A stretch of DNA of 49,396 bases, taken from IMG/VR virus record IMGVR_UViG_2582580752_000019. One strand, given 5' to 3'. This DNA is from a virus. Lineage: Duplodnaviria > Heunggongvirae > Uroviricota > Caudoviricetes. Shown here piece after piece: positions 15,001 to 21,000 of the stretch; the stretch's first letter is position 1; each line of letters opens with the position of its first letter. A program made the position numbers.

Positions 15001-18000
15001 TGCTCGATACCGTTCATTGAGGTGACCGTGAGAGCGCTACTGACCCCTGAAATTGCCCCGCGTATGGGGATCGTATTGTTCAGGCCCGGTTCAGAGCTGA
15101 TGCCCCTGTTTATGCAGGGGCGTGTCCTGCTGGAGCCTGAGCCGGAACGTTATTCATCTTTCGCCAGTGGTGCCGTTCCGGCGGCATCACAACCGCTGGC
15201 GGATGATCCTGCCGTTCGGGCCGTGTTCCGCAATGAGGCAGTGATTCGTCGTGCTGGTGGAGTGGAATGTCTTGAACGCTGGTTACTTCGTGAAAAAGGT
15301 TGCCAGTGGCCTCATTCCGACTGGCACAGCGAGAACATGACCACAATGCGACACACGCCGGGCGCAATCCGTCTGTGCTGGCACTGCGATAACCAGCTGC
15401 GCGATCAGTTCACGGAACGGCTGGAATCAATGGCAACGGATAACTGTACCCGCTGGGTGTTGTCTGTTGTGCGTCGGGATCTCGGTTTTGATGACAGTCA
15501 CGTTGTGACAATGCCGGAACTGTGCTGGTGGCTGATTCGTAATGACCTGGCGGATGCCTTACCGGAAAGTGCAGCCCGTAAGGCACTGAGATTACCGAAG
15601 CCTGTTGTGCCGTCTGTCACCCGGGAAAGTGACCTTGTGCCTTCGGTTCCTGCCACCAGCATCATCCAGGATAAAGCGAAAAAGGTGCTGGCGCTGAAAG
15701 TGGATCCGGAGTCGCCGGAGTCTTTTATGTTACGCCCAAAACGTCGCCGCTGGGTTAATGAAAAGTACACGCGCTGGGTTAAGACACAGCCGTGTGCATG
15801 TTGTGGAAAGCCCGCTGATGATCCCCACCACCTGATAGGCCACGGTCAGTGTGGAATGGGTACAAAAGCGCATGACCTTTTTGTGTTGCCTTTGTGCAGA
15901 AAGCATCACGACGAGCTGCATGCGGATACCGTGGCATTTGAAGAGAAGTATGGCTCTCAGCTGGAGCTGATATTTCGTTTTATCGATCGTGCGCTGGCAA
16001 TTGGCGTACTGGCGTAAGTGGAGAACGAGCATGAACCTTGAAGCCTTACCGAAATATTACTCCCCGAAATCTCCAAAACTGAGCGATGACGCACCGGCGA
16101 CAGGCTCTGGTGGTTTAACAATTACGGATGTGATGGCTGCGCAGGGGATGGTGCAGTCAAAAGCAACGCTTGGGTTTGCTTTATTCCTGGCAAAAGTTGG
16201 TGTTCAGGATCCTCAGTTTGCGATTGAAGGTCTGCTCAATTACGCGATGGCACTGGATAACCCGACATTGAATAAATTGAGTGAAGAAACCCGGCTACAG
16301 ATCATTCCTTACCTTGTGAATTTTGCCTTTGCTGATTATTCCAGGTCTGCGGCAAGTAAGGCTCGCTGTGAGCATTGTGCTGGTACTGGATTTCATAATG
16401 TATTGCGCGAGGTGGTGAAACACTCCAGAAGCGGGGAATCTGTTATTAAGGAAGAGTGGGTGAAGGAACTATGTCAGCATTGTCATGGTAAGGGAGAAGT
16501 CAGCACAGCATGCAGAGGGTGCAAGGGTAAAGGTATTGTCCTGGATGAAAAAAGAACCCGGCTTCATGGCACGCCTGTTTATAAGGTTTGTGGGCGTTGC
16601 AATGGAAACCGGTTTAGCCGTTTACCAACCACACTGGCGCGGCTTCATGTCCAGAAGCTGGTACCAGACCTGACGGATTATCAGTGGTACAAAGGATATG
16701 CAGATGTCATTGATAAACTGGTTACAAAGTGCTGGCAGGAAGAAGCATATGCAGAGATACAATTGAGAAAGGTGACAAGATAAATGGTTTTCGCCGAAGA
16801 TGACGACATGATGCTTGCATTTTTCAAAAAATATGGATAAGATTTTCCCAACGATGGGCTTTGTATGTCTACCGTTGATAAGATTTAAGAACCCGCCGAT
16901 GCGCGGGTTTTTTTGTACCCAGAATCCTGTGAGCTATACGGAAAGTACACAGAAAGGAAGGTGCGACCACAATTAATAACAAAATCTTAAAAATTGCACA
17001 TGGCACTATTAGTTTTCTAAATATTGTGTATTTTTTGTATTGCAGGATGACCCTGTAACGAAGTTTGCGTAACAGCATTTTGCTCTACGAGTTTGCCAGC
17101 CTCCCCCAGTGGCTGGCTTTTTTATGTCTGTAGCGTCAAAGCAGCAATGTCGCTGGGGCGTCGTGCAATTGGCGTTGAGCTGGAGACTGAACGTTTTGAG
17201 CAGACGGTCAGGGAAGTTCAGGATTTAGTCAGTCAGAACGGATGATATTGCAGGATTAGTTACGTACCGTTATTATCCTGCGCCCGGCCCTTTAGCTCAG
17301 TGGTGAGAGCGAGCGACTCATAATCGCCAGGTCGCTGGTTCAAATCCAGCAAGGGCCACCATATCACATACCGCCATTAGCTCATCGGGATAGAGCGTCA
17401 GCCTTCGAAGCTGGCTGTGCGGGGTTCAAGTCCCCGATGGCGGTCCATTATCAGCATCATGCGTTGTTAGCTCAGCCGGACAGAGCAATTGCCTTCTAAG
17501 CAATCGGTCACTGGTTCGAATCCAGTACAACGCGCCACACCACACTTATCTGCCCTGACTCTCTTTTGCGGGCTTTTTATTACAGGAAAGACACCGGACA
17601 GTGAAATGTTAAATGCCTCACAATTCAGGTAGTCGACTGTTGCCTGACATGCTGAGCGTTTGTTAAAAAAATCCTGCATGATGAATCCCCCTGGGCGGCG
17701 GGGCATAATGACAGATGTTTGGTTGCGTATTGTATAGGCAAGTTGCGGATTCTGTCTGGTCATTGCAGAATTCACCGGGAGGCACCCGGCATCATGCTGT
17801 ATACAGAGATTAGGCATATATCCAGGCCCCTCATCGCAGGAGCCTTTTTACATGCAAAAAAAGCCCGAGTAGGTTCGGGCAACAGCATGAGATACTTGCA
17901 TTGTCATTTTTATCGTGTGGATTTTAACCAGGGTTTATCAGGCTGCGCAACTGCGTGGCCTTTTTTCATTTCTTGGGCTGTAGTCCCCGTGTGTCATTCA

Positions 18001-21000
18001 GGCTTCCGGACTACAGCCCACTCCATATCTGATTTAATACACTATCCCGGCCGGGAGGAATAATGACATTTAAACATTATGATGTTGTCAGGGCGGCGTC
18101 GCCGTCAGACCTTGCGGAAAAGCTGACACACAAACTGAAAGAGGGCTGGCAGCCGTTTGGTAGTCCGGTGGCCATAACCCCTTATACCCTGATGCAGGCG
18201 ATTACAGCAGAAGGTGATGTGGTGGTCAGTGGTGCAACTGAGCCGGATTGGTACTACGTCATCGTACTGGCCGGGCAGTCCAATGCCATGGCTTACGGTG
18301 AAGGGCTTCCGCTGCCGGATTCATACGATGCTCCGGATCCGCGCATTAAACAGCTGGCGCGCCGCAGTACAGTTACGCCGGGTGGGGCTGCCTGCAGATA
18401 TAACGATATTATTCCGGCCGACCACTGCCTGCATGATGTGCAGGATATGAGTACGCTGAATCATCCGAAGGCAGACCTGAGCAAAGGGCAGTACGGCTGT
18501 GTCGGCCAGGGCTTACATATTGCCAAAAAACTGCTTCCGTATATCCCGAATAACGCGGGGATCCTGCTGGTACCATGCTGTCGTGGTGGTTCTGCATTCA
18601 CCCAGGGCGCTGAGGGGACATTCAGTGCGGACACGGGGGCCAGCCAGGATTCGGCACGCTGGGGTGTGGGTAAACCGTTATATCAGGACCTGATTGCGCG
18701 CACTAAAGCTGCATTACAGAAGAACCCGAAAAATGTGTTGCTGGCGGTGTGCTGGATGCAGGGAGAGTTTGACATGAGCGCCGCCACCCACGCACAGCAA
18801 CCTGCGCTGTTTACAGCCATGCTGACACAGTTTCGTGCTGACCTCTCCGTGTTTAACGCGCAGTGCCATGGTGGCAGTGCTGCAGATGTGCCGTGGATTT
18901 GTGGTGACACGACGTATTACTGGAAAAATACATACGCTACCCAGTACGACACCGTGTACGGCGGGTATAAAAACAGGGAGAGTGAGGGCGTTTATTTTGT
19001 GCCCTTCATGACAGACGGTAACGGCGTCAATACCGCCACTAACGCGCCGGCAGAAGATCCGGATATTCCGGCATCAGGATATTACGGTGCGGCATCGAGA
19101 ACGAATGGAAACCAGGTATCATCAAACCGCCCGACACATTTCAGTTCATGGGCGCGCAGGAGCATTATTCCGGATCGTCTGGCAACCGCTATTCTGAACG
19201 CAGCCGGGCGCACCTCAGCCTTCATCAGTGGTAAGGCACCGGAAATCAAACCCTCGCCCGGCGGCAACACGCCATCGGGTCCGTCTGCAGATACGTCCGT
19301 TCGCACAATCTCCCTGCTGCCGGCAGCCGGAGAGGCTGCTGCGCAGGGCTGGAGCATTAAGGATGGCGGAATTCAGTTGTCAGATGGTGTATTTAAGATC
19401 ACCAAGCAGAGCAATAAAACCTGGTCCCTGACGCATCCGGTGGATGACGCAATTACCCTGCTGACACAGGGCGGCAGACTGACCTGTAAGTTCCGCCTGT
19501 CAGGCGCACTGACCAACAATCAGTTCGGGCTGGGGATTTATCTGTATACGGATGCTCCCGTTCCTGATGGTGTGGCGATGACGGGTACCGGTAATCCGTT
19601 CCTGATGTCGTACTTCACTCAGACCACTGACGGCAGAGTGAATCTGATGCATCACAGGAAAGCCGGAAACACGAAGCTGGGGGAGTTCGGCGATTACGGT
19701 AACGACTGGCAGACGCTGGAGCTGGTGTTCACCGCCGGCAGTGCCACGGTTACTCCGAAACTGAATGGAGTGGCTGGCCCGGCATTCCAGGTTATAAAAG
19801 ACAGTCTGTCATGCGTCAGCATAGTGCTGATGCTGACGGATGTTACAAAAAATGCAGCGTATGGCGTTGAGATAGAAAGTCTGGTGCTGGAGATAAATAC
19901 ACCTACATCATGATAAAAAAGGGCCAGCGACTGACCTGAAGAAGACACTGGCTAAAAGGCTTTGCATGTTTGTAGATACTTATTTTTCACAGACAGCAAT
20001 GATGCCTGTCAATATATTATTAATATGCTGATTGTTTCAGTTACAGATGCTTTATTAAGGGAAAATGTCACGATCGGTGCAATCGGTGGAGAGGTGCTGG
20101 CTCAGAAGGATAGTTGGATTTCACATGATACTTATGCCTGGCGGTATATTTTCTGACAGACAGTGACGGGTGTTGTCAAGATATTGTGTCATTTATAACC
20201 TGAATCAGGGGGTGGCCGGAATGTTATCTGGCATTTTTAGCAGAGCCTGAATGCCATAATCACGGCTCCCGGAGTTGGCCGTCAGTGGGTGACACTGGCG
20301 GCTTTTTTGTTTTTCTTTACTTTCATTTTCTGTCGGCGGTGACGGAGACATACATCAGATGGAAAAAATCACAACAGGTGTGTCATACACCACGTCAGCG
20401 GTGGGGACGGGATACTGGTTACTGCAGCTGCTGGACAAAGTCTCTCCGTCCCAGTGGGTGGCAATAGGTGTGCTGGGAAGTCTGCTGTTTGGCCTGCTGA
20501 CGTATCTGACAAATCTTTATTTCAAGATTAAAGAAGATAAGCGTAAGGCTGCGAGAGGTGAATAATGTCGCCGTCATTACGCAAGGCTGTTGCAGCTGCT
20601 ATTGGTGGTGGGGCTGTTGCCATAGCGTCTGTGCTCATCACTGGTCCAGGTGGTAACGATGGTCTGGAAGGTGTCAGCTACATACCATACAAAGATATCG
20701 TTGGCGTATGGACTGTATGTCACGGACACACCGGAAAAGACATCATGCCCGGTAAAACGTATACCGAAGCAGAATGCAAAGCCCTCCTGAATAAAGACCT
20801 TGCCACGGTCGCCAGACAAATTAACCCGTACATCAACGTCGATATACCGGAAACAACGCGCGGCGCTCTTTACTCGTTCGTTTACAACGTGGGCGCTGGC
20901 AATTTCAGAACATCGACGCTTCTTCGCAAAATAAACCAGGGCGATATCAAAGGCGCATGTGATCAGCTACGGCGCTGGACATACGCTGGCGGTAAGCAAT

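Follow-up and report, generated by a model that had tools for sequence, protein, structure and literature searches.

A probable unoccupied cargo site and its regulatory-RNA block upstream of nanS-p in a lambdoid late operon

Introduction

Lambdoid prophages of Escherichia coli O157 Sakai carry convergent pairs of small RNA (sRNA) genes. These pairs lie between the coding sequence of a 'moron' (cargo gene) and a conserved downstream open reading frame (ORF) in Sp3, 4, 5, 9, 10, 11, 15, and 17 (Tree et al. 2014). In Shiga toxin (Stx) phages, stxAB is enclosed by StxS and the AsxR/EcOnc27 pair, and at least eight lambdoid prophages have such pairs (Sy and Tree 2021). Here we analyze the 525 bp between the tRNA gene argO and the sialate O-acetylesterase gene nanS-p in the IMG/VR virus record IMGVR_UViG_2582580752_000019 (Caudoviricetes). 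The whole stretch of 49,396 nucleotides is called the window, and positions are counted on it. The original prediction, made from this sequence, had described the 525 bp as an empty toxin slot.

EcOnc27 is the plus-strand partner of AsxR in the Stx2 prophage Sp5, where its RNA measures about 235/247 nt (Tree et al. 2014). It was detected there by northern blot and by Hfq-CRAC (crosslinking and analysis of cDNA) (Tree et al. 2014; Sy and Tree 2021), and it is also named sRNA103 (Sy and Tree 2021). The STnc100 family, to which it belongs, has been reported 75 nt downstream of stx2. It has likewise been reported beside sialate esterase genes in Stx2 phages and in prophages of enteropathogenic E. 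coli, and it is related to PasD. The nanS-p genes are well documented in non-Stx prophages, and their expression increases by 1-2.4 logs under mitomycin C (PMC10462455).

The interval is very probably an unoccupied cargo site of a lambdoid late operon, followed by a fixed block of regulatory RNAs. The locus of the window is a further copy of the arrangement already described by Tree et al. (2014). As a discovery it is of little weight, and it is useful for correcting annotation. In most GenBank phage records and in annotation by the Prokaryotic Genome Annotation Pipeline (PGAP), the interval is either blank or filled with a spurious hypothetical protein.

The identities, family matches, junctions, and structure conservation reported below come from this analysis. 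The promoters, the insulating role of the terminators, and the function of the leader hairpin are inferred. From the literature we take that EcOnc03 and EcOnc27 are expressed and bind Hfq, that AgvB and AsxR act as sponges, and that mitomycin C induces nanS-p.

Comparison with Sakai Sp9, 933W, and H-19B

Sakai Sp9 is organized like the window. It presents Q, a methylase gene, ileZ3/argO3, the EcOnc28/EcOnc03 pair, and the nanS-p gene ECs_1781, with no cargo. The distance from argO to nanS-p is 523 bp in Sp9 and 525 bp in the window, and the identity reaches 97% (430/444) up to the base of the leader hairpin. In contrast, the methylase gene of Sp9 is intact and its Q is different. Its leader hairpin is the GCGGGCTGCGGTTC/GGACCGTGGCCCGC variant, and the identity breaks down after window position 17980. 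The toxin-slot idea had been open to refutation by a spacer conserved in non-Stx lambdoid phages. This is largely what Sp9 shows, and a trace of a cassette boundary was seen only in the relative H-19B.

The alignment with the late regions of Stx1 and Stx2 phages, which the original prediction had proposed, finds homologous flanks on both sides. In 933W and Sakai Sp5, the left-hand block contains tR', a second terminator, a methylase remnant, the tRNA promoter pT, ileZ-argN-argO, and the post-tRNA terminator. It aligns with 16889-17578 of the window at 94% identity (blastn against 933W). The 933W alignment resumes at 17618-18170 with 78% identity, a stretch that takes in the STnc100-type sRNA and the leader and reaches into nanS-p. 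In place of window positions 17579-17617, 933W has 1341 bp, which consist of the stx2 promoter region, stxA2, stxB2, and 45 bp. This phage also differs from the window in its Q and pR'. As anti-sRNA it has AsxR, whose 5' region is different, and its leader hairpin has one mismatch.

H-19B and other Stx1a phages show a different mosaic. The tR' block (16890-17132) is 98.8% identical in H-19B, and the second aligned block runs from 17604 to the holin (20568) with 94.6% identity. The stx1AB genes lie between the two blocks, and homology returns 40 bp past the stx1B stop codon. H-19B shares with the window the EcOnc03-type anti-sRNA and the type of hairpin. Unlike the window, it has no methylase remnant and no tRNA genes, and the 5' part of its STnc100 gene is different.

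Position and extent of the cargo site

The blastn breakpoints and the junction alignments place the slot at 17579-17617. On its left it directly follows the T-run of the tRNA terminator, and on its right it directly precedes the sRNA promoter. It measures at most about 39 bp and not the 525 bp initially proposed. The original prediction was nevertheless correct in that this locus is a cargo site of stx1 and stx2 and that the toxin is absent here. Approximately 85% of the 525 bp is a conserved right-hand block. This block (sRNA promoter, STnc100/EcOnc27-type sRNA, EcOnc03, terminator, and leader hairpin) is found downstream of cargo in Stx and non-Stx prophages.

The cargo does not end at a uniform point on the right. 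This end corresponds to window position 17618 for stx2, 17604 for stx1, and 17585 for other cargo. These differing ends look like ordinary mosaic recombination rather than a site-specific cassette system. The position of stx is one state of a multi-state cargo site, which holds stx1, stx2, a terB-like gene, other cargo, or none. Such a site is relevant to the movement of toxin genes between prophage backbones in enterohaemorrhagic E. coli O26, O145, and O157.

A short repeat was observed at the stx1 module of H-19B. The module is bracketed by the 9-bp direct repeat ATAAATGTT, at about 1760 and 3225 of that locus. The cargo-free locus L129, which is H-19B-like and has neither stx nor tRNA genes, shows a single AATGTT at the join (about 760-775). 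The repeat may be the mark left by an insertion or deletion through recombination between short repeats, and it could also be due to chance.

Cargo states and distribution among relatives

We compared 80 IMG/VR loci that encode close relatives of NanS-p, and the region is strongly mosaic among them. Both argO and nanS-p are present in 67 loci. Cargo-free distances between these two genes (17 of the 67) fall in classes of 386, 476-489, and 523-525 bp, and cargo-bearing distances in classes of approximately 1.0-1.8 kb. Where the cargo-free distance is shortest, AAATGTCTCACAATTCAG directly follows the T-run of the tRNA terminator. In L129, the gap between the second tR' terminator and the right-hand block is only 17 bp.

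The cargo of the longer classes is mostly a TerB-like ORF. It encodes about 143-170 amino acids (PF05099, E = 1.7e-16) and stands between argO and the sRNA pair, for example in L026, L003, L014, and L058. Some of these loci are on backbones whose Q gene is 100% identical to that of the window.

The segment 17250-18100 occurs in one piece and with 100% identity in at least 30 genomes, many of them O26:H11. Of 5426 complete E. coli genomes, 487 cover 80% or more of this segment. For the first 25 kb of the window, the nearest match is a prophage of E. coli O145:NM FWSEC0002 (99.8%), in which insertion sequence elements interrupt them. The O26:H11 prophage at mlrA/yehV has the identical late interval, and its identity to window positions 1-25000 is only 94-98%. 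An identical late interval on differing backbones indicates that the late block moves between backbones.

Two small RNA genes next to the cargo site

The original prediction had found only a terminator and a hairpin in the interval. In addition to these, it contains two sRNA genes recognized by Rfam. The plus-strand gene belongs to the STnc100 family (RF02076). The covariance-model scan gives 170.9 bits (gathering score 47; E = 6e-40) over model positions 1-206 of 206. The northern probe published for EcOnc27 (Tree et al. 2014) maps to 17794-17828, inside this match. Like the known STnc100 genes, it closely follows the cargo site and precedes a sialate esterase gene. Its 5' part differs from the alleles of H-19B and of TerB-linked loci (69-73% identity).

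Given the RNA size in Sp5, the plus-strand sRNA probably starts near 17620, at the motif TCACAATTCAG. This motif and a -10-like TTAAAT or TGTAAT just upstream are kept in every cargo class examined. In the window, the -10-like element is TTAAAT at 17609-17614. Just after TCACAATTCAG, the window and its 100% relatives have GTCGAC (17632-17637). Close relatives, including Sp9, present a conserved GTTGAC at the equivalent place, with a perfect -35-like TTGAC.

The minus-strand gene is an EcOnc03-type anti-sRNA of the AgvB/AsxR family. It is identical in 50 of 51 positions to the EcOnc03 sequence of Figure S4 in Tree et al. (2014), an RNA of Sakai Sp9. For this comparison we used the published sequence, given that the Table S2 coordinates of EcOnc03/EcOnc28 are offset by about 135 nt on NC_002695.2. 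The gene presents the traits of the EcOnc01-03 family: 51-60 nt, a conserved 3' part of about 42 nt with a terminator, and a variable 5' part of 14-18 nt. Its fold shows a terminal hairpin, and its own minus-strand terminator is at 17880-17863 plus T7. The candidate promoter ends 6 nt before the 5' end of the Rfam match. STnc100 and the anti-sRNA are convergent, terminator abutting terminator, as in the pairs of Tree et al. (2014). The predicted RNAs would measure roughly 210-240 nt on the plus strand and 54-60 nt on the minus strand.

In the Rfam scan, the anti-sRNA passes the AgvB model marginally (RF02702; 56.2 bits, gathering score 56) and stays under the threshold of AsxR (RF02703; 44 bits, gathering score 63). 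It resembles AgvB and AsxR in length, in the 3' part of about 42 nt with its terminator, and in being convergent to a longer sRNA downstream of a moron site. However, its 5' region carries CGAUAAAAAUGACAAUGCAAG and not CACAACA, the consensus of GcvB targets with which AgvB mimics them. Nor does it match the end of AsxR that pairs with FnrS. True AgvB (CGAUAACAACACAACAAUAUCAG) occurs in other loci, for example L012 and L003. The AgvB model passes on EcOnc03 by capturing the 3' scaffold common to the anti-sRNA family. With this shared scaffold, 'AgvB' calls in genome annotation can therefore mislabel the target specificity.

Two partners were considered for EcOnc03 and rejected. For EcOnc03 as a sponge of MicC, the predicted duplex has an energy of -10.6 kcal/mol, and shuffled sequences average -9.8 (z = -0.37). 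A 7-nt match between its seed and the loop of the leader hairpin (AAUGACA/UGUCAUU) was noticed by eye and is treated as chance. The match is not kept where EcOnc03 meets another hairpin type (phage 7888 and Sp9), nor where AgvB meets the hairpin type of the window.

The partner on the minus strand is not the same in all relatives. In the class of L015, L088, and L078, it is a different terminator-bearing RNA (...GCCCGCGTCTCCCTGCGCGGGCTTTTTTT) outside the AgvB/AsxR family. This class keeps the terminator and the hairpin of the nanS-p leader.

Both genes of the window are of kinds whose Hfq binding has been documented experimentally. By analogy, they could rewire host regulation even in prophages free of toxin.

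Terminator and stem-loop in the nanS-p leader

The leader of nanS-p contains an intrinsic terminator and a stem-loop. The terminator, noted initially at 17941-17966, is present and slightly longer (17940-17967). It was kept in all the leader variants compared (23 distinct variants from about 120 loci), and its six inner pairs show only G-C to G-U substitutions. The perfect stem of the hairpin was also confirmed, with corrections. It has 13 bp instead of 12, and it ends 42 nt before the ATG of nanS-p instead of 45. The stem-loop begins 7 nt past the T-run of the terminator and is approximately 400 bp to the right of the cargo junction. By our estimate, about 0.001 perfect 13-bp repeats are expected by chance in 1.3 kb. 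The region 17930-18070 folds with a z-score of -3.18 and is more stable than 200 of 200 shuffled sequences.

Three main types of hairpin were distinguished. The first (window and H-19B) is perfect, with 12-13 bp. The second (933W and L088) has 8 bp, 1-2 mismatches, and 3-5 bp. The third (Sp9 and phage 7888) has 14 bp with three G-U wobbles. In our alignment of the 23 variants, 88.7% of the cells are paired, compared with 31-40% when the partners are slid. Three pairs of the hairpin changed on both sides (C-G/U-A, U-A/C-G, and A-U/G-C), and the G-U wobbles fit an RNA of the plus strand. RNAalifold recovers the terminator and the hairpin de novo.

We found a description in the literature for every element except this stem-loop, and no Rfam family covers 17974-18020 at E values up to 1. 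A weak GcvB-like echo (E = 0.24) over the terminator, antisense of the anti-sRNA, is the only Rfam match that extends into 17916-18062.

The induction of nanS-p by mitomycin C suggests that the leader is read mainly in Q-dependent late transcripts. As a guess, the hairpin might act on the late mRNA, as a 5' stabilizer after processing or as an extra barrier. A more specific role seems doubtful. In this case, the terminator and the 13-bp stem-loop (17940-18020) would be a cis-regulatory RNA. In lysogens it would gate the esterase, and with it the lysis genes further downstream, without the need for Q. If true, this gating could explain the NanS-p activity in uninduced lysogens.

Proposed model and alternative explanations

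Under the model of an unoccupied cargo site with a fixed RNA block, the tRNAs and both sRNAs would be made in the lysogen from their own promoters. Three plus-strand terminators, one following argO, one ending the STnc100 gene, and one at 17940-17967, would keep this transcription out of nanS-p and the lysis genes. On induction, RNA polymerase modified by Q would start from pR', pass all the terminators, and express nanS-p-S-R-Rz. Relatives have stx1, stx2, or a terB-like gene after the tRNA terminator and before the sRNA promoter, and the window has nothing there.

Several observations weigh against this model. The AgvB score is barely at its threshold, and the GcvB-mimic motif is absent. The promoters of the sRNA and the anti-sRNA are consensus-level proposals, and the promoter scan called none. 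Transcription and Hfq association of the STnc100 gene in the window are assumed by analogy with EcOnc27 of Sp5 only. The terminator after argO is weakened, so the insulation may be leaky. In the hairpin, the 45-84 pair is broken in 15 of the 23 variants, and several singleton variants are disruptive. The comparison suggests that the hairpin structure is conserved, with support that is only moderate because it comes from about three independent lineages. Finally, a site that was never occupied and one that was cleanly emptied cannot be told apart with proof from sequence.

The emptied site leads to the first alternative, namely that the interval is what remains of a Stx-converting phage after deletion of its toxin operon. 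Its flanks are those around stx2 in 933W and around stx1 in H-19B. The ATAAATGTT repeats, double around stx1 of H-19B and single in L129, form the pattern expected when short-repeat recombination removes the module or once inserted it, and the window has AAATGTT at 17604-17610. We consider this origin unlikely. The original prediction had proposed a possible remnant or recipient site of a toxin cassette. No similarity to stx beyond chance was detected in the whole window, and none in the slot, with blastn (word size 7) using the stx1 module of H-19B and the stx2 module of 933W, and with tblastn using Stx1A/B. The sequence 17579-17617 is absent from 933W and partial in H-19B, and homologous pieces occur in the non-Stx loci L133 and L129. 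Its retention means that the window is not a simple deletion product of either phage. Moreover, at least four diverged haplotypes, as well as Sakai Sp9, have the same zero-cargo junction, and none of the Stx phages in the phage collection is highly identical to the window on both flanks.

The 13-bp inverted repeat could instead be a site at the level of DNA. It would serve as a recombination or attachment-like boundary, or as an operator for a protein, for example at the divergent promoter of the anti-sRNA. Its perfection far beyond chance, its place 59-105 bp upstream of the anti-sRNA start, and its conservation beside a variable region agree with this idea, which we still regard as very improbable. 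The variants keep G-U pairing of the plus strand, which would be an A-C mismatch on the other strand and irrelevant for a protein site, and the loop is free to change. The repeat is also present in leaders with a different upstream sRNA type (the L015/L088 class). As for a boundary of a site-specific cassette (attC-like), this candidate was rejected. Such a boundary would be repeated at the cargo junction and on the cargo flanks. The inverted repeat lies about 400 bp from 17579-17617, stays with nanS-p whatever the cargo, and has no partner copy across it.

Another reading would fill the slot with a real gene. The statement that the interval has no ORF is mechanically incorrect, since frames of 114 amino acids (17719-18063, plus strand) and 116 amino acids (minus strand) exist. 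A 'hypothetical protein' is annotated at the homologous place in YYZ-2008, BP-4795, and phi-O153. In biological terms, the statement holds. The 114-aa frame has no Pfam match, PGAP does not call it, and it starts with TTG and has no evident ribosome-binding site. In nine relatives it is open for only 8-59 codons, and it crosses two sRNA genes, three terminators, and the hairpin. It is scarcely credible as a gene.

Genes and terminators of the late region

The coordinates of the features are collected in Table 1. The order from left to right is Q, the tR' terminators, the methylase remnant, ileZ/argN/argO, the 525 bp, nanS-p, holin, endolysin, and Rz. The proposed succession of Q, tRNAs, nanS-p, and pinholin/endolysin is real according to Pfam, ARAGORN, Rfam, and the annotations. 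As in Stx phages, Q and tR' are present, with a tR' block 94-99% identical to those of 933W and H-19B, and nanS-p is followed by holin, endolysin, and Rz (Pfam). The genes stxA and stxB are absent between Q and the lysis genes.

Table 1. Features of the late region, with window positions and the basis of each assignment
Feature	Position	Strand	Basis
Q late antiterminator	16031-16783	+	250 aa from ATG at 16031; mechanical ORF from 15989; PF03589 Antiterm, 176.5 bits
Putative pR' (TTGCAT, 17 nt, TAAGAT)	16815-16843	+	Proposed from reading the sequence only
tR' intrinsic terminator	16887-16918	+	Inverted repeat I3; homologous to the 933W terminator annotated at 20726-20748
Second terminator upstream of the tRNAs	17095-17123	+	GCCAGCC/GGCTGGC stem and T-run
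DNA methyltransferase 3' remnant (pseudogene)	17132-17245	+	PGAP 'DNA methylase, incomplete' at equivalent position
Putative tRNA promoter pT (TTGCAG, 17 nt, TATTAT)	17248-17276	+	Matches 933W 'pT putative tRNA promoter' in the colinear 94% block
ileZ (anticodon CAT)	17286-17361	+	ARAGORN, Rfam; Met in ARAGORN, Ile/ileZ in RefSeq and 933W
argN (Arg TCG)	17371-17447	+	ARAGORN, Rfam, RefSeq and 933W annotation
argO (Arg TCT)	17461-17537	+	ARAGORN, Rfam, RefSeq and 933W annotation
Post-argO terminator, degenerate	17552-17578	+	Homologous to 933W 'terminator upstream of the stx genes'
Actual cargo junction	17579-17617		blastn breakpoints and junction alignments; 39 bp at most
STnc100/EcOnc27/sRNA103-family sRNA	17620-17855	+	Rfam match 17647-17855; probable start ~17620; terminator ~17824-17850
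EcOnc03-type anti-sRNA (AgvB/AsxR family)	17856-17915	-	Variable 5' part CGAUAAAAAUGACAAUGCAAG, conserved 3' part, terminator
Candidate anti-sRNA promoter	17922-17950	-	-35 TTGCGC at 17950-17945; 17 nt; TGg and TTAAAA at 17927-17922
Intrinsic terminator between sRNA pair and nanS-p	17940-17967	+	9-bp stem and T6; stem 17940-17961 and T-run
Leader stem-loop	17974-18020	+	Perfect 13-bp inverted repeat 17974-17986/18008-18020; 21-nt loop
nanS-p sialate O-acetylesterase	18063-19913	+	DUF1737, SASA, and DUF6645; Shine-Dalgarno GGGAGG at 18053-18058
S21 (P21)-type holin	20359-20565	+	PF04971
Lysozyme (endolysin)	20565-21062	+	PF00959
Rz	21047-21526	+	PF03245

The product of Q also presents a DnaJ-type zinc finger (Pfam search), and PGAP labels the equivalent position 'antitermination protein'. 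RefSeq names the product of nanS-p 'SASA family carbohydrate esterase'. Of the proposed pR'/tR' pair, tR' is confirmed by its homologs in 933W and H-19B, and pR' remains putative. This promoter is too weak for the consensus promoter scan to call. Its stretch is specific to the Q type and has no homology to 933W or H-19B by blastn, where the homology begins at tR'.

Judging from its position, tR' would end a pR' transcript of about 65 nt, a positional analogue of StxS. This short transcript is expected at about 16850-16918 (plus strand). Only the terminator half is homologous to 933W/H-19B, so its 5' (seed) part probably differs from StxS. The second terminator lies within the 94% block common with 933W, whose annotated counterpart is 20929-20957.

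The 3' remnant of a methyltransferase is real, and PGAP annotates a pseudogene at its equivalent. It shows 71% amino acid identity to the C-terminus of the intact 353-aa DPPY methylase of a Stx2c phage. The remnant had been taken as a hint of past rearrangement. However, 933W has the same remnant (86% amino acid identity), so it is uninformative about the slot. It is an old scar shared by this lineage.

The post-argO terminator is weakened in the window and in Sakai Sp9. Its 5' arm is GACTCTC, compared with GGCTCGC in 933W and most loci. Transcription of the tRNA operon may therefore continue into the STnc100 gene.

Another RNA module was observed in the early region of the window, at 10511-10699 on the plus strand. 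Rfam identifies isrK (10511-10587, 67 bits), immediately followed by a C4 antisense RNA (10612-10699, 83.6 bits). Together they form an immunity RNA module of the P1/P7 c4/ant-like type, as in the IsrK locus of Salmonella Gifsy.

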